Shown one piece after another: positions 1 through 62,796 of a DNA stretch of 64,000 bases. The stretch comes from Patescibacteria group bacterium (GTDB lineage Bacteria; Patescibacteriota; Minisyncoccia; Phycocordibacterales; UBA9973). The notes below the pieces were generated by a model. It was not told the DNA's origin and did not search any database. It saw nothing but the letters and a program-made list of their open reading frames with translations. Position 1 is the stretch's first letter; each line of letters begins with the position of its first letter. Location: the NCBI GenBank assembly GCA_040390725.1, contig JAZJXT010000001.1, positions 85,070-149,069 of the forward strand, in the 5' to 3' direction. The position numbers were made by a program, and so were the translations under genes.

Positions 1-2409
<2,409 letters not shown>

Positions 2410-6772: not shown

Positions 6773-6857
6773 GGAGGCGTCGCATAGCGGTCTAGTGCGC
6801 AGACCTGGAAAGTCTGTGTGGGGAAACCCACCGAGAGTTCGAATCTCTCCGCCTCCG
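6773..6857 (+). tRNA. tRNA-Ser (anticodon GGA) with long variable arm
   Basis: Acceptor GGAGGCG/CGCCTCC; anticodon loop CTGGAAA; long extra arm; T-arm GAGAG-TTCGAAT-CTCTC; CCA not encoded. Confidence 0.85.
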
Positions 6858-6916: not shown

Positions 6917-8965
6917 TTATTCTGCTTCTTTAGCAAGTACAGAGTTTGCATAATCTTTAGACCATTTAGCGAAAATACCAGTAGGTCCTTTGAGTCCTTG
7001 TGGGGTGAGGATTTCACTGAAATGGTCTTGTTGTAATTTCATTAAAGCATTTTTAGTAGCTGCCTCGAAAGAGGTCGTCTCGTGGCCAATAGATCCGGCC
7101 CCTGTTGTTGCAACAATATATCCATGAGTATTCAAGAATTCCTGAAGTCTCTTTACTTCTTCTCCTTTACTTCCTACTTGCATTCTTAGTTTGAAAAAAA
7201 TAGGGGAAACCTTTTTTACGATGGAGGGCTGTAAAGTCGTTGTAACTGTTCTTGCTTCTGTTGGGGTGGTTGTCGCAGGCGGAGGGATAAGGCGGCCACC
7301 ATTTCCCCTAGGTGGAATGATTGGCTGTGATTCTTCACTACCACTACTGCATCCAGAAGTAGTAAATGTATTGTCTGTGCCCGTGGTTGCATTTCCAGAA
7401 GTATCTACAGAGTAAACTGCATAGTGATAAGTTGTACAAGGTAAAAGACCCGAAATAATAACTGTGTGGGAAGTGACTCCTGCTCCAGTATCAGATTCTG
7501 TCGTCATGCTTCCATAGCTGTCAGTTGTGCCATAAAGTATTTTTGAAGATGATGATGTATCTGTGGTCCATGTAATTGTAGCAGTCGTAGTGGATGGTGT
7601 TGCTGAAACATTTGAAATACTCGGTGCAGTTTTATCAAAAGTTACTGTTGATGCATCTGTTGTTGATGTGGTTGAAGTAGGATTGCTTGCAAGGTCTGTA
7701 GCATCAATAGTGAATGGCACTACTCCTTCTGTGTCGCCTGATATCATTGTGTATGTAGCGCTCCATGTATTTCCAGATGTATTTATAGGTGTAACAGAGT
7801 GTCCCGCGATAGTGACTGTCGGTGTATTGATTGTGTCGTCAGCTGTAAATGTTAAAGTTACATCATTTCCGACTTTTGCCATTGATGTAGAGTTTGTATT
7901 ATTTGAAGAAATAGAAATAGGTGAAAGCATAGGCGGGGTAATATCACTACCTACTACGTTTACAGTAGGAGATGTACCGATATCGGTAAGCCCTCCGGAA
8001 TCAACTGTCTTTGATTTTACTGTAAAGGTGCTTGTCTCTGGAGAAGAAGGCGCTACGGCTCCACTTGCGCCACCTCCGTCGCCGTAAGTTATAGTGATAG
8101 TTTGACCAGCAGTCAAAGAAAGAGCATCAATAATAATATTTTGCCCGGAAAATGTCGGCACAATGGTACCACCTGTTGAGCCCAGCATAATGTGATCCAC
8201 GTAAACTGTATTGTTGCCGATATTTGAAAGGTTGGAAATTTTGAAGCCGAAACTTCTAACGGCGGTGCGGGAAGATGGAATCGAAGCAAAATTAAAAGTT
8301 ACGTAAGTCCAAGTGTCGGCAGAAATTGCCGAACCCAAATTCAAATCTTCAAAAGCGGAGGATAAATCTGTATTGCCGCTGACGTCAAAAGTTAAATCGC
8401 CATTATTGATGGGGCCTGTTGTTCTGATCCAAAATCCAATTGAAGAAAAAGAAGACCAATCTTGAGGAGAAATAGTTTTATACCACAAGCCGTGATTGTC
8501 GTCACTGCTGTTTACGCACTTAATAGAACCTGTGCTCGAATGAAAAACAGAATTATCAACAGTCAGTCCGCCCGTGCAAGCCGTAGGGTGAGAAGTAGTA
8601 TTAGTCCAGTCGGTGGTACTTTCTGCCTCATCTAAAACTCTGCCTACTGTACCATTGGAAGAAATAGTCGTATAACCCGCAATACCGGGTGTGCCTTGAG
8701 GGGCGCTCCATGTTGCTGGCACTGTAAGGGTGATGCCTCCGCTGTTCATTGTTTCAGAGGCAGTAAAAGTAAACGTTAAAGTATTACCTGTTGAGTTTAC
8801 TGTGGTGACTCCTGGTGATGTAGATACAGCTGTCGCGCCTGAACCATCACTAGCATAAGTATTATTAATTTTATAAAAAGTAAACGCTAATAAAAAGACA
8901 CAAAAAAGCAAAAGACAAAATTCCTCTATTTTTAAAATTTTTTTCATAATGAGCTTATTATACAT
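6917..8965 (-). CDS. large secreted Thr/Ser-rich cell-surface protein with Ig/Fn3-like repeats and C-terminal peptidoglycan-binding domain
   Basis: N-terminal signal/TM; long T/S-rich beta-rich repeats; C-terminal LQEFLNTHGY..G..T..A...LQ pattern resembling a PG_binding_1 domain. Confidence 0.6.
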   Translation of the reverse strand: MYNKLIMKKILKIEEFCLLLFCVFLLAFTFYKINNTYASDGSGATAVSTSPGVTTVNSTGNTLTFTFTASETMNSGGITLTVPATWSAPQGTPGIAGYTTISSNGTVGRVLDEAESTTDWTNTTSHPTACTGGLTVDNSVFHSSTGSIKCVNSSDDNHGLWYKTISPQDWSSFSSIGFWIRTTGPINNGDLTFDVSGNTDLSSAFEDLNLGSAISADTWTYVTFNFASIPSSRTAVRSFGFKISNLSNIGNNTVYVDHIMLGSTGGTIVPTFSGQNIIIDALSLTAGQTITITYGDGGGASGAVAPSSPETSTFTVKSKTVDSGGLTDIGTSPTVNVVGSDITPPMLSPISISSNNTNSTSMAKVGNDVTLTFTADDTINTPTVTIAGHSVTPINTSGNTWSATYTMISGDTEGVVPFTIDATDLASNPTSTTSTTDASTVTFDKTAPSISNVSATPSTTTATITWTTDTSSSSKILYGTTDSYGSMTTESDTGAGVTSHTVIISGLLPCTTYHYAVYSVDTSGNATTGTDNTFTTSGCSSGSEESQPIIPPRGNGGRLIPPPATTTPTEARTVTTTLQPSIVKKVSPIFFKLRMQVGSKGEEVKRLQEFLNTHGYIVATTGAGSIGHETTSFEAATKNALMKLQQDHFSEILTPQGLKGPTGIFAKWSKDYANSVLAKEAE

Positions 8966-10683: not shown

Positions 10684-11607
10684 ATGCTATTTTCCGCGAT
10701 ATTTACGATAGTCGGGCTTTCTCTTTTTGAGGCAATTTCGTCTTTGGATAATGCTGTTATCAACGCTGAGGCACTAGCCACGATGAGTCCCAAAGCAAAA
10801 CGCTGGTTTTTATTATGGGGTTTTTTATTTGCTGTTATTGTTGTGCGTGGTTTTTTACCATTCGTTATTGTCTGGGCTTTTAATCCGACTTTGAATGTGA
10901 TGCAAGTTTTGTCTGCAGCTTGGTCAAACAATCCTATTGTTCATGAATCAATTATGAAATCTTCTCCTATATTGCTCGTAGCCGGGGGAGTTTTTCTTTT
11001 GTTTTTATTTTTACATTGGTTATTTTTAGAGGATAAACATTTTGGCTTACCACAACCCGAGAAATTTTTTATGAAAAAGGGTGTTTGGTTCTATGCTGTT
11101 ATTTCAGTTATATTGTCTCTTGTCGCGTGGTTTGCTTTGAAACATAGTAACATGATGGGCTTTGGCGCAGTGATGGGTTCGACTTTATTTTTTATCACGC
11201 ACGGCTTCAAGCAAAATGCGGAAGAAGCTGAAAAAACTTTGACCAGTTCCGTAGGTTCTGATTTTAGCAAACTTTTATTTTTGGAAATAATTGATGCTAC
11301 TTTTTCTATCGATGGAGTATTGGGCGCGTTTGCATTTACTTTATCTGTGCCTTTAATTTTACTTGGTAATGGATTGGGTGCATATCTTGTGCGTAAATTT
11401 ACAGTAAGTAATATAGAAGTTATAAAAAAATATATTTACCTTAAAAATGGCGCGATGTATTCTATCTTAGCTTTGGGTGTCATTATGATTTTACAAAGTT
11501 TCGGTCACGAAATTCCGGAATATGTTTCTCCACTTATCACTATTATTATTATCGGTTTTTTCTTTTGGAAATCTAAAGTGATGATTAAAAATAATGCAAA
11601 AGTTTAA
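10684..11607 (+). CDS. TerC/DUF475-family integral membrane protein
   Basis: Two internal repeats, each with a (S/A)xDN/DG motif (SSLDNAV; IDATFSIDGVLGAF); about 7 TM segments. Confidence 0.55.
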   Translation: MLFSAIFTIVGLSLFEAISSLDNAVINAEALATMSPKAKRWFLLWGFLFAVIVVRGFLPFVIVWAFNPTLNVMQVLSAAWSNNPIVHESIMKSSPILLVAGGVFLLFLFLHWLFLEDKHFGLPQPEKFFMKKGVWFYAVISVILSLVAWFALKHSNMMGFGAVMGSTLFFITHGFKQNAEEAEKTLTSSVGSDFSKLLFLEIIDATFSIDGVLGAFAFTLSVPLILLGNGLGAYLVRKFTVSNIEVIKKYIYLKNGAMYSILALGVIMILQSFGHEIPEYVSPLITIIIIGFFFWKSKVMIKNNAKV

Positions 11608-14596
11608 CGAAGAATACAGAAAACTAAATAAAGCACAAAAGGAAGCTGTGGATAGTATCGACGGGCCGGTGATGGTGGTAGCGGGGCCGGGTACTGGGAA
11701 GACGCAGATTTTGGCTTTGAGGATAGCAAATATTTTAGAAAAAGCTGGTGCACAAGCAGATGAAATTTTGTGTCTGACTTTTACGAATTCCGGGGTGAAG
11801 GCGATGAAAAAAAGATTGGCGGAATACATAGGCAGTGATTCCGAAAAAGTTCGTATTTCGACATTTCACAGTTTTGGCATAAATTTAATCGAAAAAAATT
11901 ACGAGAATTTGGGTTTTAAAAAATTACCGACGCTCCTTTCCGACGATGAAGCAGTATTTCTCGTGGATGATATTTTGCAAAATAATGATTGGGAACATTT
12001 GCGTCCACGAGCAAATCCGGTAATGTATTTTTCTGATTTAAAACATTTAATTTCTATTTTAAAAAGAGAAGGCTTAAGTCCGGAAGAATTTTTGTCATTT
12101 GTCGAGGCGGACATAGAAAATTTGAAAAATGATCCGGAAAATATTTCTTCGAGAGGCGAGACAAAAGGACAATTAAAAAAAGAAATTAAAACAAAAATAG
12201 AATCCCTCGAACGCACGCGTGAAGTTGTGGAATTTTACAGAATTTATGAAGAGAAAAAACTCGAAAATGGATTGATGGATTATGACGACATTTTGGCTTA
12301 TACTGTCCGGCTCGCAGGTGAGTTTGAAGATATCAGCGCCGACATAAAAGAAAATTATCAATATATTTTGGTGGACGAACATCAAGACTCGAGCGGTGTG
12401 CAAAATAATTTCTTGAAAGCTGTCTGGAAAGGCGAAGAGAAGCCGAATATTTTCGTAGTAGGGGATGACAGACAATTGATTTACGGTTTTTCTGGCGCTT
12501 CGATGTCGTATTTTGAAGAATTTGCGCATATTTTCGGTAAAGCAAAACAAATTACTCTTACTGAGAATTATCGCTCTACTCAAAATATTTTAGACTTGGC
12601 GGATGATTTGTTAAAGAGTTCTATTACCAATGAAAACTTAAAAAGCAATACAAAAGGTAAAGAAAAAATAAATTTAAATGAATATGATTATCCGCGTGAT
12701 GAAATATTGGGCGCAGGTTTGTATTTCAAGAATAAAATTGAAAAAAAAGAATTAAAAATGGAAGACTGCGCAATACTCGTGCCGAAGAATTATCACGTGC
12801 GAAATGCCATAGAAATACTGCACAATATGGGTGTGCCTGTTTCTGCTGGCAAGAATTTGTCATTATTTGATGTGTCGGAAACACAAAGCTTGTTACGAGT
12901 TTTGAATATTACAGCAAAGCCATATGACAGTATTCCTCTTTCGGAATCATTGCTTGATAAATACAGCGGTATAGGCGCTTTTTCTGCGCATAAATTTTTA
13001 AAATCCCTGAAACCGGATAAATTAAATATTGAAAACTTGATATCAGAAGGCAAAGACGGTGGGCTTTTTGCCGGAGAAAATGCAATTTCAAAATGGGGAA
13101 GTAAATTAAAAAATTGGATTGATACTTTATCCAATGAAAAACTTTCGGTAGTAGTCAGCACTATCGGCAATGAATTTTTAATTGATCAATCAAAAACTCA
13201 CGAAGAGTTGATACGCAACGTCGAAGTTGTGCGCAGTTTTATACATATAGCAATGCTTTTTGAGCAGAAAAATAAAAATAAAGGTTTAGTAGAATTTTTG
13301 GAATATTTCAGAAGGTTGGAAAGCTATGGTAGTCACATTTCACTTGCGACTTTTGGCGCAGAGAGCGGTGTGCAAGTTATGACTTTGCATAAATCAAAAG
13401 GGCTCGAATATAAAGCTGTTTGGATAGCGCATATGAATGAAGAAGTGATAATGTCCGAAAAGAAAAATGGTTTTACTTTGCCGGAAGAAGTTAAGAAGCG
13501 ACTCGCCGAGAAGGATATTGAATCAGTAAAAAGGGAGCTGTATGTGGCTATTACTCGCGCGAAAGAGTTTTGTAATATATCGTATTCTGCGGAGAATTAT
13601 ACCGGTGGAGAGATGGAGCTCGCACATATCATCCGCGAATTGCCGGAAAATCATTTTATAAAAAAGACACAAGAAGAAACAGAAAAAGAAATTTTAGCAC
13701 ACGGTCCGCAAATATACACGAAAGTTGTAAAAAATAAGGAAGGAAATATCTTGGAAGATATAAAAACTTTTGTACGAGAAAATTATTCGGATAGTAAAGT
13801 TTCCGTGTCATTGCTGAATAATTTTTTCGAATGTCCTTGGAAATGGTATTTTAGAAATTTTTTGAAATTACCGGAAGTGAAAAGTTCGTCACTAGGACTC
13901 GGCTCCGCAGTGCACAGCACGATAGAATTTATTTTGAAATCTGCCGAAGCAAGGCTTCGGCAGAAAGTTTCGCAAAAAGAAATTTATGAAAAGATACTAT
14001 TTGAGTTGGAAAAAGAAGGAGTTAGTAATGAAACAGAATTAAAGAAATTAGCAAAAGATGCGGAGAATGCAGTATTGTATTGGGTGGAGAATTATTATAA
14101 AACTTTGGCGAAAGATTATATGTCGGAAAGGTCATTGCAATTCCGTGATGCAAAATTCCCGGAGCTTTTGATGTATGGAAAATTGGACTTAACGGAGAGA
14201 TTGGAAAATGGCGATGTGGTTATCACTGATTTTAAAACCGGCAGTGTGAAAACAAAAAATACAATAGAAAAAATCGACGAAGAGGGTAGGCTTTCGACAT
14301 TGATGCGCCAGCTTGCGATGTATTCATACCTCGTCGCGGGCGCAGAGCGGGGCAGAGATGTGTATGCCTCCAAACTTCTTTTCCTTGAGGCAAAAAAGGA
14401 CGACAAAAACGCTTTGTATTCTACGCACATAGATATAGAACAAATAGATTTGTTGATAAAAGATATAAGGGATTATGACAATCTTCTAAAAATAGGTGAT
14501 TGGGTAAATAGACCTTGCAACTATAATTCGTATGGCAAAAATACCAAATGTGAGTATTGCAAAAGAGCTGAAATATATATGCACCAAAGTATTTAA
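11594..14596 (+). CDS. UvrD/PcrA-family helicase fused to a C-terminal PD-(D/E)xK (RecB/Cas4-like) iron-sulfur nuclease (AddA-like)
   Basis: Walker A (AGPGTGKT), DEHQD, VGDDRQLIYGF, NYRST and TLHKSKGLEY helicase motifs; C-terminal GKLDL...ITDFKTG nuclease motif; 4-Cys cluster (FECPW ... CNY..C..C). Confidence 0.85.
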   Translation: MQKFNEEYRKLNKAQKEAVDSIDGPVMVVAGPGTGKTQILALRIANILEKAGAQADEILCLTFTNSGVKAMKKRLAEYIGSDSEKVRISTFHSFGINLIEKNYENLGFKKLPTLLSDDEAVFLVDDILQNNDWEHLRPRANPVMYFSDLKHLISILKREGLSPEEFLSFVEADIENLKNDPENISSRGETKGQLKKEIKTKIESLERTREVVEFYRIYEEKKLENGLMDYDDILAYTVRLAGEFEDISADIKENYQYILVDEHQDSSGVQNNFLKAVWKGEEKPNIFVVGDDRQLIYGFSGASMSYFEEFAHIFGKAKQITLTENYRSTQNILDLADDLLKSSITNENLKSNTKGKEKINLNEYDYPRDEILGAGLYFKNKIEKKELKMEDCAILVPKNYHVRNAIEILHNMGVPVSAGKNLSLFDVSETQSLLRVLNITAKPYDSIPLSESLLDKYSGIGAFSAHKFLKSLKPDKLNIENLISEGKDGGLFAGENAISKWGSKLKNWIDTLSNEKLSVVVSTIGNEFLIDQSKTHEELIRNVEVVRSFIHIAMLFEQKNKNKGLVEFLEYFRRLESYGSHISLATFGAESGVQVMTLHKSKGLEYKAVWIAHMNEEVIMSEKKNGFTLPEEVKKRLAEKDIESVKRELYVAITRAKEFCNISYSAENYTGGEMELAHIIRELPENHFIKKTQEETEKEILAHGPQIYTKVVKNKEGNILEDIKTFVRENYSDSKVSVSLLNNFFECPWKWYFRNFLKLPEVKSSSLGLGSAVHSTIEFILKSAEARLRQKVSQKEIYEKILFELEKEGVSNETELKKLAKDAENAVLYWVENYYKTLAKDYMSERSLQFRDAKFPELLMYGKLDLTERLENGDVVITDFKTGSVKTKNTIEKIDEEGRLSTLMRQLAMYSYLVAGAERGRDVYASKLLFLEAKKDDKNALYSTHIDIEQIDLLIKDIRDYDNLLKIGDWVNRPCNYNSYGKNTKCEYCKRAEIYMHQSI

Positions 14597-40537: not shown

Positions 40538-40610
40538 AGCCGGCAGGGGGATTCGAACCCGCGACCTTCGCTTTACAAAAGCGTTGCTCTACCAACTGAG
40601 CTATGCCGGC
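40538..40610 (-). tRNA. tRNA-Thr (anticodon TGT)
   Basis: Reverse complement GCCGGCATAGCTCAGTTGGTAGAGCAACGCTTTTGTAAAGCGAAGGTCGCGGGTTCGAATCCCCCTGCCGGCT: 7-bp acceptor, D-arm, anticodon loop TTTGTAA, T-loop TTCGAAT; one T-stem mismatch by my reading. Confidence 0.8.
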
Positions 40611-40666
40611 GATTATTATAACGTTTTACCGGTATGGTTATTTTGGTGATTATTTGTTGTATATCT

Positions 40667-40762
40667 ACCAAGACAGCTATGCCGGCGATTTGTTTATTCA
40701 ATTTTCAATACTGCCACATTATGATTTCTTTTGCATCCTACCAAGACAGCTATACCGGCTTG
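40667..40762 (-). repeat. two degenerate partial copies of the tRNA-Thr 5' half (acceptor plus D-arm) at about 75-bp periodicity
   Basis: ctaccaagacagctatgccggcgatt (40667-40692) and ctaccaagacagctataccggctt (40739-40762), versus the tRNA's ctaccaactgagctatgccggcgatt (40589-40614). Confidence 0.6.
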
Positions 40763-40807
40763 TGTTTACATTCTACTTAAAATAAAATAAAAAGCAATTC
40801 TTAATTT

Positions 40808-52368: not shown

Positions 52369-55300
52369 TTAAGCTTTACTATTTACATAAACCTTCCTTC
52401 CAACATACACAAGACCTGCCGCTACTAATATCAATATCAAGATATTTATAGGAGTGGATTTGATATGCGTAACACTAGAGATGGCATTCGCTGTTAATCC
52501 AAGCATACTGTTGTCTGTTGTTGTGGGCGCAGGAGCAACCGTGCTTGTGTCTACTGTAGTTGTTAAATCTGCTCCAGCTGTTGTTCCTGTGTCTGTTGTA
52601 GTGCCAGATCCAGAAGTAGATACTGATGTTGTGCTTGTTGTTGTATTTTTTGTACTTGTCTTTGTAGAAGTTTTTGTTGCTGTTGCTGTGTCTGTAGATT
52701 TGGTCGTAGTGGTTGTATTAGTTGTAGTATCAGCAGGTTTTATTGTCGTTGTATCTTTTGTGGCTGTATCTGTAATTATATTTTGTGTTCCTTGATTAGG
52801 GTTAGTAGTTGTATCTGTATTTGTTCCCGTGTCTCCTGTAAAATTTCCGCCACTATTTCTCCTTATTGTATATGCAAAAGATCCAACAGCTGACATATTT
52901 AATGCATCATCACAGCCAACTGCTTGAATAGTTTGAGTTGAAGATACAGAAATTGCTCCTGAGTACAGAGTACCCACTGTGCATGACGGAGCTGTTGTTC
53001 CATCAGTTGTATAATAAATTTTTGTAGAACCAGTAGAAGAAAGAGTTACTGATTGAGTACCAGTGAATGTTCCAGCAGCTGGGGTCGCAGTAGGAGTTAA
53101 TGGGTTGCATGCAGTTGTATTGAAATTAGATTCATTACCTACGCTTGTTCCATTTGTGTTTGTAGCATATGCTCGGAAATAATATTTAGTACCGCAAGTT
53201 AGGCTTGAAAGGTCAGAAGAGAAGGAACCTATATTAAAAGGAGCGTTAGTATTGTCCACAGTTACATTTGGATTATAGTCAGCAATGTCAGTTGAAGTTG
53301 GATGTGAGGTTGTGTCGTAACCGAAGCCTCGTATTGTGACACTTGAACCTCCGGTATCGTAAATAGTGCCATTGACTGTAGAGGTATTGGCAGTAGGAGG
53401 GGTGACGTATAAATTTAGGAAACCAATATTGCTTGTACCGTGGGTTTGGATAGGAGTAAGACTATTCGTGGTAGTATTGTTGCCCAGTTGACCAACGCTA
53501 CTATCCCCCCACGCCCAGACTGTGCCGTCAGATTTAAGGGCGAGGGAAAAGTCAGCTCCATTAGTAATAGAAGTAATATCAGTTAAGCCAGAAAATTGAA
53601 TAGGGGTATGCCTATCGGTAATTGTGCCGTCGCCTAATTCACCATCGCCATTATAACCCCACTCCCAGACTGTACCGTCATTTTTTACAGCAAAAGAATG
53701 ATATTCACCTGTAGGAATATTAGTAATACCCGTAAGTCCAGAAACTTGAACGGGAGTATGTCTGTCAGTAGTTGTACCGTCACCTAGCTGACCAAAATCA
53801 TTTCTTCCCCATGCCCAGACTGTGCCGTCGGATTCTAGAGCGAGGGAACGGAAAGCACCAGTAGAAATCTTAGTAATACCCGTAAGCCCGGAAACTTGAA
53901 CAGGAGAAAGTCTATTGGTTATTGTGCCGTTGCCTAATTCACCAAAACCATTATAACCCCAAGCCCATACTGTACCGTCGGATTCTAGGGCGAGGGAGTG
54001 ATCTGTCCCAATGGAAGCAGAGATAGCAACAACTCCATTAAGACTAGAAACTTGAACTGGTGTAAGTCTGTCGGTTGTTGTGTTATCACCCAACTGACCA
54101 ACCCTGTTGCTTCCCCATGCCCAGACTGTGCCGTCGGATTTGAGGACTATAGAAAAGTCAGATCCACCAGTAATAGAAACAATATCAGTTAAGCCGGAAA
54201 CTTGAATAGGAGTGAGTCTATCAGTTGTTGTACCATCACCGAGTTGACCTTGTCCATTACCTCCCCATGCCCAGACGGTACCGTCGGATTTTAGAGCTAG
54301 GGAATGATCATGCCCTCCGGCAATATTAGTAATACCTGAAAGTCCGGAAACTTGAACAGGAGTAAGTCTATTAGTTGTTGTACCGTCACCTAATTTACCA
54401 AAATCATTTTGTCCCCACGCCCAGACGGTACCGTCGGATTTTAGAGCTAGGGAATGATCTACGCCTGCAGAAATTGTAGCAGTAAAAGTCGTAAGGCTCG
54501 GCTTAGCACATATGCTAGTTGTAAAGTTTAATATATTTCCATCTCCTTCACCATCATTAGATTTTGCATATGCTTGGTAGTCGTATTGTGTATTACAAGC
54601 AAGAGTTGTCACTATTGCGGAAAATCCTCCCACGCCTAAGCCTGTACTTAAAGTTAAAGACTGAGAAAGAACTTGACCATGAACACCATAATGAAATCCT
54701 TTCTCTGTTAAGCTAGATGATCCTTGTGAAATAATATTTCCTTGAAGTTGCCCAGAACTTCTTGTGATACTTGTCGCAACGTTAGTTGTAACATTAGGGA
54801 CAGAAGTAATAGCAGATGCACTAGGTCCAGCATTTGAGAAAGTAGAAGTTGCTTGCAGTGTCGGTGCATCTGCTCCGGTAACACCAGTACAACTTGTAGA
54901 GAGAGTACCACAACCATCGGTTGGTTGGTTGGAAGTAGTTGTATTCCAATAAGATCCGCTGATTGTTCCTTGATTAGTTCCTATAAATCCTCCAAACTCA
55001 ACAGTTCCTCCGCTTACATTACCAGAAGCGTACGAGTTTGTAATTGTTGCTCCACTTGAACTGCTTCCTACAAGTCCTCCAACATGCATTACACCACTTA
55101 CATTTCCTGTGGCATAAGAGTTAGAAATGGTAGCATTACTATTTCCGTCATTAAAACCAACCAAGCCTCCTGCGTTAGAATCAGTACATGTAACTGTTGC
55201 CGTAGAATAAGAATTCGTTATTGTTGCAGTATTGGACCCAACTAATCCTCCCACAGCACTGCTCCCAGTAACTGATCCGGTAGAATAAGAATTCGTTATT

Positions 55301-55734
55301 GTTTTAAAGTTAACTCCAGCTAAAATACCGACACCGCTATTGCCTGAAATATTCGCATTTATTATTCCAATATTGCTTATAGTTCCAGCTTGTATACCGA
55401 ATAGGCCTACAAAGTTAGTACTAGACATATTGATAGTTAGTCCGGAAACTTTAAATCCATTTCCATTTAGTGCTCCAGAAAAGGCAACATCATTATCTCC
55501 CACAGGAGTGAATGTAGTAGTGCTACAATCAATGTCATTAGCCAATTGATAACTTCCAGAAAGGTTAAGATTCATGTTTTGCAAGTCCTGGCAAGTGGTG
55601 ATGATAGTCGTAGGGGATGATGCAAAAGCAACACTAAAACCAGCACTAAATCCTGTGCTAATAAAAGCGACCAAAGTGAAAACTGATGTGATTTTTTTTA
55701 TAATATTTTTCATAATTTTTTTGTCTCCACGCAA
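52369..55734 (-). CDS. giant secreted cell-surface protein: GLUG-motif repeats, about 7 RCC1-type beta-propeller repeats, Fn3/chitobiase-like domain, Thr-rich stalk, C-terminal TM anchor
   Basis: Signal peptide; repeated GGLVG (GLUG) units; seven [28 protein letters not shown] repeats; [12 protein letters not shown] domain; T-rich linker; C-terminal hydrophobic anchor; 1121 aa. Confidence 0.7.
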
Positions 55735-55899: not shown

Positions 55900-56265
55900 A
55901 AAGTCTTGAGCTGGATAATCGCGTCCTGAGCTTGTCGAAGGATGAGGAAAGTCCGAACATGGCGAATCCAATTTATTGGAAGGGAATGGTAATGGGTAAT
56001 TCCCATACAGGGCAACCTGCGAGGTGCGAGCAGAGACGCCGATGCCGAAAGGCTAGGGCTCCGACGTAACGTCGGAGCAGTCCAGTGGAAACACTGGGGT
56101 GAAACGGCTAAATCCTTACCCCCATGCAAGATCGTGTCCGCCCACAGCTACACAGTTGCTGGCGGAAGAATCGCTCGACTCCGACGGTAACGTCGGAGCT
56201 AGATAAATGATTATCGTTCCGACCTCGTGTCGGGATACAGAATTCGGCTTATAGGCTTAAGACAA
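55900..56265 (+). ncRNA. rnpB: RNase P RNA (bacterial type A)
   Basis: P4 hallmark GAGGAAAGTCCG near the 5' end and ACAGAATTCGGCTTA near the 3' end; P1 pairing gtcttgag/cttaagac; TATAAT at 55892-55897 about 6 nt upstream; terminator immediately downstream. Confidence 0.85.
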
Positions 56266-56271
56266 AACATG

Positions 56272-57561: not shown

Positions 57562-58113
57562 TTATTTTTGAGGTTTTTCTTCTTTTACTTCTTTTGCATG
57601 GTCGATAAAAAGAATACCATTCAGATGGTCAGTTTCATGTTGAAAAATTTGCGCCAATAGACCGCTTGCGCCACGAGTAAACTTTTTTCCATTTTCATCG
57701 TATGCCTCGGCTGTGGCTTTGATTGAACGATATGTTTTACCATAGAGCCAGCGCACGGACAGGCATCCTTCAGGTAGCCATTTTTTCTCACGGGATAATT
57801 TTGATATTTTTGGATTTATGAAAACAAGATGTTTTATTTCTTTCGGCTCCCTCTCCTTATTAAGGAGAGGGTTGGGGTGAGGTTCTTCTTTTTTCATAAA
57901 ATCATCTTCAAATATTTTTCCGGAAACTAGAAAAATACGCAATGAGTAGCCTATTTGCGGGGCAGCTATGGCCACACCATCACTTTGGCTCTTGAGAGCT
58001 TCTTCCATTTCTTTTAAGATTTTTTTTATTTTTGGAGTGCAAATATCTTTTATAGGCACCTCTTTGGCGACTTCTCTGAGCACTTTTTCTTCTTTTTGAA
58101 CAATATCCTTCAT
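57562..58113 (-). CDS. def: peptide deformylase
   Basis: Motifs G.aA.QIG, EGCLSV and HETDHLNG; 183 aa. Confidence 0.9.
   Translation of the reverse strand: MKDIVQKEEKVLREVAKEVPIKDICTPKIKKILKEMEEALKSQSDGVAIAAPQIGYSLRIFLVSGKIFEDDFMKKEEPHPNPLLNKEREPKEIKHLVFINPKISKLSREKKWLPEGCLSVRWLYGKTYRSIKATAEAYDENGKKFTRGASGLLAQIFQHETDHLNGILFIDHAKEVKEEKPQK
57849..57884 (+). repeat. GC-rich palindromic mini-element (copy B) inside the def ORF, antisense to the gene, translated in frame
   Basis: ccctctcc-ttatta-aggagaggg + ttggggtgaggtt; read on the minus strand as EPHPNPLLNKEREPKE within the def insertion loop. Confidence 0.7.
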
Positions 58114-60057: not shown

Positions 60058-60153
60058 TGCAACATTGTATCATAAAAAGTTCTTGACAGTGTATATAAAT
60101 TTGTTCTCTAATGCTATTTACCTTTTATGTTTTAACTGATATAATTTGTATAT

Positions 60154-60691: not shown

Positions 60692-61789
60692 TTACTCCAA
60701 GTGCAAAAGAGTCATTTTGTGATCTTTCGGTTCGAATAGAGTAATTTGGAAATTATAAGTCTTTCCTAATGCTAACTTTTCTCGAAGTTTCGCTTCAGAT
60801 CCAAATGTGGAATTGTGTACAAGTCCAGCAACACCTTCTTTGATAGAAATCAAAGCGCCGTGTTTGTTGTACTTGATAACTACACCTTTTATGATGTCAC
60901 CCTTTTTCAATTTACCTTCATATTCTTTCCAAGGATTTTCCTTCAAAGCTTTGATAGAAAGGGAAATCTTGCCATCTTTTATTTCAATAACCTTTGCGCG
61001 GATAGGGTCGCCAACTTTAAACAATGTGCGTGGGTCTTCCACTAGGCCCCAGTCGAGTTCAGAAATGTGCACGAGCCCTTCCAGTTTATCTTCAAGTTTC
61101 AAGAATACTCCGAAGTCTACGATGCCGGCAATGGTGCAATCAAGCTCGTCGCCTACATTGTATTTGTTGAGAATTTCTTTCTTTTCTTCAGGATTATTGT
61201 CTTTTTCAGAGAAAATAAGTTTGCCTTCTTTTGGTAAAGTCGAAATCATCATTACAGAGATTTTCTGACCGACTAATTTCTTCAATTCTTTTAAGATTTT
61301 ATCTTTATCGGAATCAAGCACGCGCGGATAGTGTTCGGCTTTTAATTGTGAAGCAGGCAAGAAACCTTGGATGCCTTGCCATTCCAAAATAAGCCCGCCT
61401 TTGTTTGCGTCTTTAATTTCCAAATCCATCACTGTTTTTGCCTTGATAGCTTTTTCAGCTTCAGACCAAGTGAGGGCTTGTTTTGCTTCTTTCAATGAAA
61501 GCTCTGCATAACCGTCTTCATTTTCCACTTCGACGACTTTTGCTTTTATGATATCACCAGGATTTATTTTCTTGATGATATCTTTCGCATTAATAAACTC
61601 TCGTCCGTAAATGATACCTGTTCCAAAAGGGGAAAGGTCCACATACACTGACGACTTTTTAATCAAAATAACCGGACCTTCAACCAAGGCATCTACCTCG
61701 AGTTTTGTGGCACTTCGGTCTACTATTGATTTCAAGACTAAATTTTCATTTAAGTCTACGACTTCTTCTACTACTTTTGTTTTTTTCAT
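60692..61789 (-). CDS. rpsA: 30S ribosomal protein S1 (short, 4 S1 domains)
   Basis: Four tandem S1 (OB) repeats with the G..v.G.V pattern; 365 aa. Confidence 0.8.
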   Translation of the reverse strand: MKKTKVVEEVVDLNENLVLKSIVDRSATKLEVDALVEGPVILIKKSSVYVDLSPFGTGIIYGREFINAKDIIKKINPGDIIKAKVVEVENEDGYAELSLKEAKQALTWSEAEKAIKAKTVMDLEIKDANKGGLILEWQGIQGFLPASQLKAEHYPRVLDSDKDKILKELKKLVGQKISVMMISTLPKEGKLIFSEKDNNPEEKKEILNKYNVGDELDCTIAGIVDFGVFLKLEDKLEGLVHISELDWGLVEDPRTLFKVGDPIRAKVIEIKDGKISLSIKALKENPWKEYEGKLKKGDIIKGVVIKYNKHGALISIKEGVAGLVHNSTFGSEAKLREKLALGKTYNFQITLFEPKDHKMTLLHLE

Positions 61790-61961: not shown

Positions 61962-62006
61962 CCCCTCTCTATTTTTACTAAAATGTAGAGGGGTAGGGGT
62001 GAGGTG
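61962..62006 (+). repeat. GC-rich palindromic mini-element (copy C, longer loop), intergenic
   Basis: cccctctcta-tttttactaaaatg-tagagggg + taggggtgaggtg. Confidence 0.65.
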
Positions 62007-62166: not shown

Positions 62167-62796
62167 ATGATAATTACATATTTCGGCAAGCAATTTTTTA
62201 AGATAAGCCAAGGCGAGATGGTCGTGGCTTTTAATCCCGTTTCTAAAAGTTCCAAGTCCGGTGTCTCGGCAAAGTTTGGCGCGGATATTGCATTGGTTAC
62301 TACCAATCATCCTGACTACAACGGCCTCGAACAACTCTCGCACGGCGAGCGTGTTCCTTTTGCCATCACTGGCCCGGGGGATTACGAAGTGAAAGAAATT
62401 TTCGTAAAAGGCCTCATGTCTGATTCCGAACTTTCCGGCAAAAAATATATTAACACTATTTACTCATTGGCTGTGGATAATATAAACATTGTTTTCCTTG
62501 GTGCTCTTTCTAATCCGGAAATTTCCAAAGAAGCTCGCGAGGCGATAAATGAACCCGATATTTTATTTGTGCCTGTCGGAGGTAACGGCTTGCTTGACGC
62601 AAAACAATCCGCAAAACTTGCTTCTTCACTCGAGCCGAAGCTTGTCATACCGATGGATTACGATACTGCATCTTTAAAATCTTTTTTGAAAGAAATGGGT
62701 GATGAAAAAGCCGAAGTAATGGATAAATTAACTCTAAAAAGAAAAGACCTAGAAGGTAAAGAGGGGGAAGTGATGGTTCTATCAGCGCAAGGATAA
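62167..62796 (+). CDS. MBL-fold metal-dependent hydrolase (UPF0173-like)
   Basis: N-terminus IITYFGKQFFKI..GEMVVAFNP resembles UPF0173 KITWLGHSAF.I...ILIDPF; C-terminal LFVPVGGNGLLDAKQSAKLASSLEPKLVIPMDYDT. Start may be the later Met at 62218. Confidence 0.6.
   Translation: MIITYFGKQFFKISQGEMVVAFNPVSKSSKSGVSAKFGADIALVTTNHPDYNGLEQLSHGERVPFAITGPGDYEVKEIFVKGLMSDSELSGKKYINTIYSLAVDNINIVFLGALSNPEISKEAREAINEPDILFVPVGGNGLLDAKQSAKLASSLEPKLVIPMDYDTASLKSFLKEMGDEKAEVMDKLTLKRKDLEGKEGEVMVLSAQG

Follow-up and report, generated by a model that had tools for sequence, protein, structure and literature searches.

A putative low-GC BoxC/PIT/TM triplex-motif repeat in frame inside the peptide deformylase gene of a Patescibacterium

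Introduction

The repeats of the BoxC/PIT/TM family have been known since the 1990s, and in the literature searched neither a function nor a mode of spread has been established for them. The motif, named BoxC, then PIT element and later TM or TMECO, has the form 5'-CCCTCNCCC-N3-6-GGGNGAGGG-N3-GGGNGAGGG (Holder et al. 2015, NAR, PMC4666352, who cite earlier work by Maher and co-workers). Escherichia coli K-12 carries 23 TMECO copies, 23 of 23 intergenic, and 3610 TM copies were counted in 262 proteobacterial genomes, related G/C-rich motifs being abundant in cyanobacteria (PMC4666352). The motif folds in vitro into an intrastrand purine-motif triplex, which was not detected in vivo. In E. coli it showed no promoter, terminator or in vivo polymerase-blocking effect, and it was found to have no link to known mobile elements and to be tied to local genomic instability (PMC4666352). 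The same E. coli elements, all intergenic, were described as HPG1 and HPG2, a G-quadruplex/hairpin/duplex switch (Kaplan et al. 2016, NAR, PMC5100583).

The Rickettsia palindromic elements (RPEs) are about 100-150 bp long, form ten Rickettsia-specific families, each with a conserved peptide ORF, and insert in frame in metabolic genes. REP/BIME elements and MITEs are, like the triplex motif, short, structured and interspersed repeats located mostly between genes. Here we describe a repeat found in frame inside the peptide deformylase gene (def) of a Patescibacterium and compare it with those systems. Judging from the sequence comparisons given below, it is likely that the element is a low-GC variant of the pan-bacterial BoxC/PIT/TM family of intrastrand-triplex repeats, also described as a G-quadruplex/hairpin switch, and that it behaves as an entity of its own.

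Results

The def gene and its variable loop

The window, i.e. the whole stretch of 64,000 nucleotides analysed, comes from a Patescibacterium near "Nomurabacteria"/Paceibacteria with a GC content of about 37%. The host gene of the element is:

57562..58113, minus strand: def, peptide deformylase, 183 amino acids (Pfam PF01327; thousands of homologues; GVAIAAPQIG, EGCLS and QHETDH intact)

An initial annotation of this DNA had pointed to a palindromic repeat inside the minus-strand gene, and the sequence was indeed found at 57849-57884, in frame and read antisense as PHPNPLLNKER. Since an independently assembled Logan contig encodes the identical Def protein, the copy is no assembly artefact. 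Its location was also correctly given as a variable loop between the G.aA.QIG (here G.AAPQIG) and EGCLS motifs. Both motifs are intact, and the loop, bounded by GKIF..DF and LVFINP, is hypervariable, ranging from 14 to about 50 amino acids among 76 orthologues. The nearest solved structures are the type-1A deformylases (Arabidopsis thaliana PDF1A, 1zxz) and the Leptospira enzyme 1sv2; on alignment with them the insert falls in a loop that is already extended in type-1A enzymes, and which is probably the one called the "CD loop", close to where the Leptospira enzyme binds its substrate. In an AF2 model of Def, a mediocre one (mean pLDDT 65) used solely to show a loop without confident structure, residues 71-90 have a pLDDT of about 50 and no regular structure, between flanking strands at 60-63 and 96-103. 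Read antisense, the copy would provide about 12 residues of a hypervariable surface loop, and the insert would be tolerated because the loop is permissive.

The same loop site is occupied in other lineages by unrelated sequences, even by other GC-rich elements. A different GC-rich element of about 66-75 nt lies in frame in the Def loop of L148 (10223-10288), L160, L182, L196, L194 and L199 (L denotes fetched loci and P database proteins), encoding ERGLSQxDGPRGSA.....DSDP. In its fold an outer stem, CGGGGTC/GACCCCG, encloses two hairpins, the second of which varies in sequence between species with its pairing kept, and Rfam has no match for the element. The Def of L130 and P0116 has an extra N-terminal segment, FQKEPARNASHSDAGGEK, missing from the other orthologues, and a similar string, SEADAGGE, occurs in the Def loop of L181; the segment may be another repeat-derived insert.

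Anatomy of the def copy

On the plus strand the element reads CCCTCTCCTT-ATT-AAGGAGAGGG-TTG-GGGTGAGGTT, 36 nt in all, laid out as a 10-bp hairpin followed by a G-rich tail:

57849..57858, plus strand: CCCTCTCCTT, the C-rich arm of the triplex motif; its complement in the def mRNA, AAGGAGAGGG, gives codons K86-E87-R88 and the first base of E89
57859..57861, plus strand: hairpin loop ATT, variable among orthologues (N85 in the window, V or I elsewhere)
57862..57871, plus strand: first G-rich arm AAGGAGAGGG, Watson-Crick partner of the C-arm
57872..57874, plus strand: linker TTG, 3 nt, counterpart of the E. coli linkers, TTA in type A motifs and CCG in type B
57875..57884, plus strand: second G-rich arm GGGTGAGGTT, mirror repeat of the first G-arm, with allowed purine-motif triads (G*G.C, A*A.T, T*A.T) at 10/10 positions
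57847..57885, minus strand: Def codons E77-E89 (E-PHPNPLLNKER-E), the translation covering the 36 nt of the element

The minus-strand reading around the element is ...KKEE-PHPNPLLNKER-EPKE..., the element taking residues 77-89, and the peptide stretch of the region is KKEEPHPNPLLNKEREPK. The hairpin, with its stem of 10 bp and loop of 3 nt, has a dG of -17.1 kcal/mol (z -4.2) as RNA of the def strand and of -10.4 kcal/mol (z -4.9) as DNA. Eight triads are G/C-rich and two are A/T. The copy is a low-GC variant in that its outermost triads are T.A*T in place of C.G*G and its loop is A/T-rich; its G-runs are 2, 3, 4 and 2 long (GG, GGG, GGGG, GG).

Other copies in the window

The 23-nt palindrome with at most 3 mismatches occurs at exactly two sites of the window, in def and in ligA, and allowing a free loop gives exactly the same two sites, 0.00 being expected from 100 shuffles in either case. 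A third copy was found by following the tail motif GGGGTGAGG, so that three copies (ligA, def, intergenic) lie in the 64 kb, where 0.00 are expected:

379..2409, plus strand: ligA, NAD-dependent DNA ligase, 676 amino acids, host of the second copy
853..891, plus strand: second copy, in ligA, read in sense as 13 residues (C-arm 853-863, loop AAC, G-arm 867-877, linker CGG, mirror G-arm 881-891)
61962..62006, plus strand: third copy, diverged and intergenic, CCCCTCTCTA-14 nt-TAGAGGGG-TA-GGGGTGAGGTG, between an S1-domain gene (60692..61789, minus strand) and an ORF at 62167..62796 (plus strand)

All 11 triads of the ligA copy are allowed ones (11/11). No direct repeats flank any of the three window copies. 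The claim that one element stays in frame in two genes in opposite orientations is borne out, ligA reading it in sense and def antisense.

Several other repeats and RNA genes were observed in the window. An unrelated 26-nt perfect palindrome, TTCTGCCGAAGC-NNN-GCTTCGGCAGA, lies at 1104-1129 and 13940-13965, the two copies being exact reverse complements and both in frame, one in ligA (ten residues, at another variable LigA site) and one in a UvrD/AddA-like ORF of 1000 amino acids at 11594..14596 (also ten residues); its exact pattern is absent from 321 of 321 fetched loci. A direct-repeat array with a unit of about 150 nt occupies 53446-54501, with 5-7 copies of 66-74% identity to the reference copy and a partial copy at 55417. 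A bacterial class A RNase P RNA (117.7 bits) lies at 55903-56267 and two tRNA genes at 6773-6857 and 40538-40610, and the direct repeats found at 40588-40763 point to a small cluster of tRNA genes.

Assignment to the BoxC/PIT/TM class

In members of the family a C-rich arm pairs with a complementary G-rich arm into a hairpin, and a 3-nt linker leads on to a second G-rich arm mirroring the first, which could lie into the hairpin as a third strand. The definition of the ITxF class has a C-rich arm, a loop of 1-6 nt, a complementary G-rich arm, a short second loop and a mirror G-rich arm, with stems of 6-15 nt and at most one mismatch; the def copy presents 10-nt arms, loops of 3 and 3 nt and 10/10 allowed triads. 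The core 8 nt of each of its arms (CCCTCNCC / GGNGAGGG / GGGNGAGG) are those of E. coli entries in the published Table 1, and the same arm cores were present in more than 240 collection contigs among the matches listed. Against the published consensus, the copy has three mismatches, one per arm, all at triad 9, where C.G*G becomes T.A*T.

Scanning for the C-arm and G-arm followed by GGGGTGAGG showed the motif to be abundant in viral and metagenome collections, on contigs of 32-73% GC among the matches listed. The scan of viral contigs returned at least 120 stretches on contigs of 37-73% GC; the motif is therefore not peculiar to the organism of the window. In the viral matches listed, three-way covariation was measured at triads outside the searched core: 102 of 127 combinations were valid at triad 9 (60 expected) and 31 of 66 at triad 10 (14.6 expected), and 0 of 10,000 shuffles reached either count. 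The third arm, covarying by the rules of triplex pairing, is therefore part of the element. One viral contig (L099, 1732-2830) has seven triplex-motif copies in runs of 3 and 4, spaced by about 71-72 nt and almost the same in their flanks, which shows that short tandem arrays of the motif occur as well.

With the TMECO repeats the def copy shares the three-block architecture, near-same arms (CCCTCTCC / GGAGAGGG / GGGTGAGG), the 3-nt second loop, the multi-copy nature, loops that vary more than arms and local gain or loss between relatives. It differs in that the E. coli arms are 9 nt long and all G/C-ended whereas the outer triads of the def copy are T.A*T around an A/T-rich loop, and in that the E. 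coli copies are intergenic whereas this one is in frame inside an essential gene of a Patescibacterium. Assignment to the strict TMECO subtype was rejected: its consensus allows at most one mismatched pair, which the three mismatches exceed, and its location is intergenic while the def copy lies within codons 77-89. The def copy is thus filed in the wider class and not in the E. coli subtype. HPG1 and HPG2 are the TMECO elements as described by their G-rich part (GGGAGAGGG-TTA/CC-GGGTGAGGG) and have a conserved C-rich 5' flank, but they are all intergenic and their switch uses four G-tracts of at least 3, for which the G-runs of the def copy are too short. On the basis of its sequence the def copy cannot form a canonical three-tetrad quadruplex. 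Triplex or G-quadruplex formation by it is thus putative, neither being assured given two A/T triads and G-runs of 2-4. In contrast to REP/BIME elements and MITEs, neither TIRs with a target-site duplication nor an associated RAYT or IS transposase was seen, and the third, mirror-repeat arm is foreign to REPs and MITEs. Rfam returned no family, either for the whole window at gathering thresholds or around the element at E<=10.

Reading frames and stop codons

According to the initial annotation, the element avoids stop codons in several frames, as a hallmark of RPE-type repeats. Six-frame translation does not sustain this, the def and ligA copies being each open in 3 of 6 frames. The 94 intergenic-like metagenome family members among the matches listed have on average 3.39 open frames of 6, compared with 4.10 in composition-matched shuffles and 3.51 in random 36-mers of the window. 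Moreover, the def and ligA copies are not interchangeable, since the frame used by ligA has a TGA in the def copy and the ligA copy is kept open by a 2-nt difference in the linker. With no stop avoidance, the coding copies would simply be those that by chance arrived in a frame free of stops.

Conservation and distribution among relatives

Eighty def loci were fetched from related species for the comparison. Besides the window, L122, L123, L130, L145 and L161 carry the element with identical position, orientation and frame, the reading frame being kept in all six carriers (6/6), and it is present in three further database Def proteins (P0003, P0007, P0013); the carrier peptide is conserved as PHP[ND]PLL[VIN]KER. 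In L161 a 39-nt GC-rich palindrome, CGCCCGCTTTCGCCTGAGCGAAGCGAAGGCGGGCAGACC, is nested in frame in the linker of the triplex motif and lengthens the loop to PHP-RPLSPERSEGGQT-NPLLVKERE.

Nucleotides of the element are conserved beyond what the peptide accounts for, whereas the synonymous sites of the surrounding gene have reached saturation. In pairwise comparisons of the six species, sites with identical residues have the same codon in 85% of cases within the element and in 46% in the rest of def, and among columns with an invariant residue the codon is also invariant in 5 of 8 within the element as against 5 of 94 elsewhere (Fisher p = 1.5e-4; six DNA sequences). The rare codons CCC, CTC, GAG and AGG are kept in the element of a 37% GC genome, and such differences as exist are mainly amino-acid replacements located in the two loops (N/D/S at 81, N/V/I at 85). 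At ligA (window, L322 and L323), the corresponding values are 94% inside and 52% outside the element (p = 1e-7).

The element is absent from 67 of 73 related Def loops, and 0 of these 67 loops showed residual similarity to it above shuffles, which leaves a slowly decaying ancestral insert unsupported at def. Related species have it either nearly intact or without any trace. Comparison of L122 with L132 shows the element in the place of native sequence of the same length, with nothing added. On a neighbour-joining species tree made from MAG data (HisS+Fmt, 685 columns, 64 species), five of the 64 species carry the def element and the carriers are never sisters of each other. The number of changes that parsimony requires is 5 for 94 of the 100 bootstraps and 4 for the remaining six. 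On the Def tree too the carriers are scattered, with the exception of L130 grouping with L145; lateral transfer of whole def alleles was accordingly discarded, the carriers clustering on neither tree, while short-patch transfer of the loop alone may have occurred.

Given the all-or-none occurrence and the codon conservation, the nucleotides of the def element cannot, on the sequences compared, have drifted neutrally since the carriers diverged. Sequence-level constraint, copy correction from other family members and repeated recent arrival are all possible causes of the conservation. Likewise, the history at def may consist of gains, of losses with sequence constraint, or of short-patch recombination. 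Five independent arrivals in the same orientation and frame and at about the same codon are unlikely unless targeting or short-patch recombination took part.

Most LigA orthologues lack the element and read IPLxLxxP[CYF]PEY at its site, and in L324 the copy is decayed, 15 nt of it being deleted. In P0127, P0128, P0131, P0140, P0146, P0148, P0196, P0224 and P0240, the site holds inserts such as PPDKGGxRGV, PPAKGEVGRG and LPxSPLSxGG. These inserts look like products of a related C5/G5-armed repeat, so that the LigA site, like the Def loop, takes several element types.

The relatives' sequences, 1.26 Mb in total, hold 20 further copies, and all those away from the def site are upstream of start codons. 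Eight species (L126, L130, L134, L147, L168, L175, L176, L191) have triplex-motif copies 5' of pth, in the divergent pth-lepB spacer at about 7800-8060, and two have them 5' of dnaE (L190 3896-3950, L198 2985-3018). The window has none at 60058-60153. Often the copies upstream of pth and dnaE belong to a more extensive palindrome, which has a CCTCACCC arm at its opposite end. Sister species with filled and with empty intergenic sites were compared (L175/L177, L147/L124/L141), and their spacers are too diverged to define insertion ends or a target-site duplication.

Coding copies in other bacteria

The low-GC variant was also searched in metagenomes, the sample being the first 120 contigs in database order, with no taxonomy assigned. 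At least 130 copies were found on at least 120 contigs. Coding sequences were called by an ORF heuristic. Among the matches listed, 36 of 130 copies lie in candidate coding sequences, as do 29 of the 80 located at least 400 nt from both contig ends, the latter figure being 16 of 50 for contigs below 45% GC. Pfam identified all ten ORFs tested as real enzymes, namely UvrD, CCA-adding enzyme, PFOR-beta, two RsmA, PurD, MurG, UvrB, Fpg and PPDK; the domain alignment spans the insert in eight of them and stops 4-6 residues short of it in the other two, one RsmA and UvrB. Coding copies are thus common in low-GC bacteria, and in-frame insertion is a wider phenomenon than the initial annotation had suspected.

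All six frames are used by the coding copies among the metagenome matches listed, and the peptides PHPxPLLxKER, TSPxPSPxxGE, NLTPxLSLxRRG, PLSLxRRGxGGE, PLLxKERxxVR and PSPxxGEGxGE recur. Of those listed, 24 are antisense and 12 sense to their gene, a ratio predicted by per-frame openness, i.e. by the stop-codon filter alone (p=0.61).

Discussion

The def element appears to behave as an entity of its own and not as a piece of Def. The opposite case, in which the loop would be ordinary, vertically inherited Def sequence with a motif kept by protein selection and the palindrome incidental to it, draws on the peptide conserved among the carriers and on the alignment of its LLNKER part with ILAQER of plant PDF1A. 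However, ligA and an intergenic spacer have the same nucleotide motif, codon identity greatly exceeds the background of the gene, with rare codons kept, and the element is patchily distributed. Neither half of the alternative named in the initial annotation, namely that Def orthologues all carry the segment and diverge at synonymous sites in the usual way, agrees with these data, and we regard ordinary inheritance as extremely improbable. It is also very improbable, if slightly less so, that the element is what that annotation proposed, an RPE-type, coding-adapted mobile element whose palindrome evolved to avoid stops and so inserts in genes either way. What stands of the proposal is the likeness to RPEs as short palindromic repeats in frame in unrelated housekeeping genes, adding peptide where the fold permits: two essential genes hold copies in opposite orientations and many more conserved enzymes hold them in frame, in all six frames. 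The assignment itself fails, since open frames are at or below chance and the def copy has stops in three of them, including the one that ligA uses. Moreover, RPEs are about 150 bp long and Rickettsia-specific with a conserved peptide, whereas the def element has 36 nt, the unrelated BoxC/PIT/TM architecture, a pan-bacterial distribution and a peptide that differs by frame, and about two thirds of the metagenome copies among the matches listed are non-coding, as most copies of close relatives are intergenic.

A locally selected cis-acting structure in def, for instance an mRNA hairpin pacing translation or mRNA decay, or a DNA structure with an effect on replication or transcription, kept for its function and not as a passenger, would agree with the conservation of nucleotides beyond protein need at two loci (def and ligA), with the stability of the hairpin and with the recurrence of copies at the same spot upstream of pth in eight relatives. 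We nevertheless consider it unlikely. Most close relatives lack the element at def and at ligA, the orientation of the coding copies is mixed just as the stop-codon filter predicts, the E. coli tests saw no promoter, terminator or in vivo polymerase-blocking effect (PMC4666352), and concerted evolution among copies would yield the same conservation. The reading of the def copy as a member of the BoxC/PIT/TM family would instead have the element spread, or be maintained, by copying between family members, through gene conversion, repair-templated insertion or transposition, and the coding copies would be those that landed in an open frame within a tolerant loop. A search for mobility machinery, a target-site duplication or a donor copy identified none of them.

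Two observations concern the insertion junctions. The C-arm side of both coding copies of the window coincides with native-like residues, PLSL in LigA and KERE in Def, and AAAGAGA is common to L122 and L132 at the def junction. Microhomology-guided capture can be taken from them as a lead only, with n=2 and with codons for Pro/Leu/Ser and Lys/Glu/Arg that are inherently pyrimidine- or purine-rich.

Published descriptions, in the literature searched, place the BoxC/PIT/TM family exclusively between genes, and a search from whose reach most subscription journals were excluded returned no report of it in coding sequence or in Patescibacteria. In-frame copies in essential genes of a reduced genome would turn an intergenic curiosity into something that shapes proteins, in parallel with the RPEs of Rickettsia, although both the element family and the phyla are others. 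Annotation and structure prediction in uncultured bacteria should then treat PHPNPLLxKER, TSPQPSPxxGEG and PLSLxRRGxGGEV as repeat-derived inserts and not as family motifs, and filled and empty sites aligned by codon would make insertion boundaries and rates measurable.

We propose, tentatively and as a possibility that falls somewhat short of the probable, that in Patescibacteria and other low-GC uncultured bacteria the BoxC/triplex motif is an actively copying element, kept up or propagated by gene conversion, repair-templated insertion or a hitherto undiscovered mobility system, which routinely enters or replaces short stretches of ORFs in any of six frames. If this is true, conserved enzymes would generally be supplied with new loop sequence by the motif, and the filled and empty sites in conserved genes, tractable because coding flanks align exactly, would offer the first tractable route to how a 30-year-old orphan repeat family moves.
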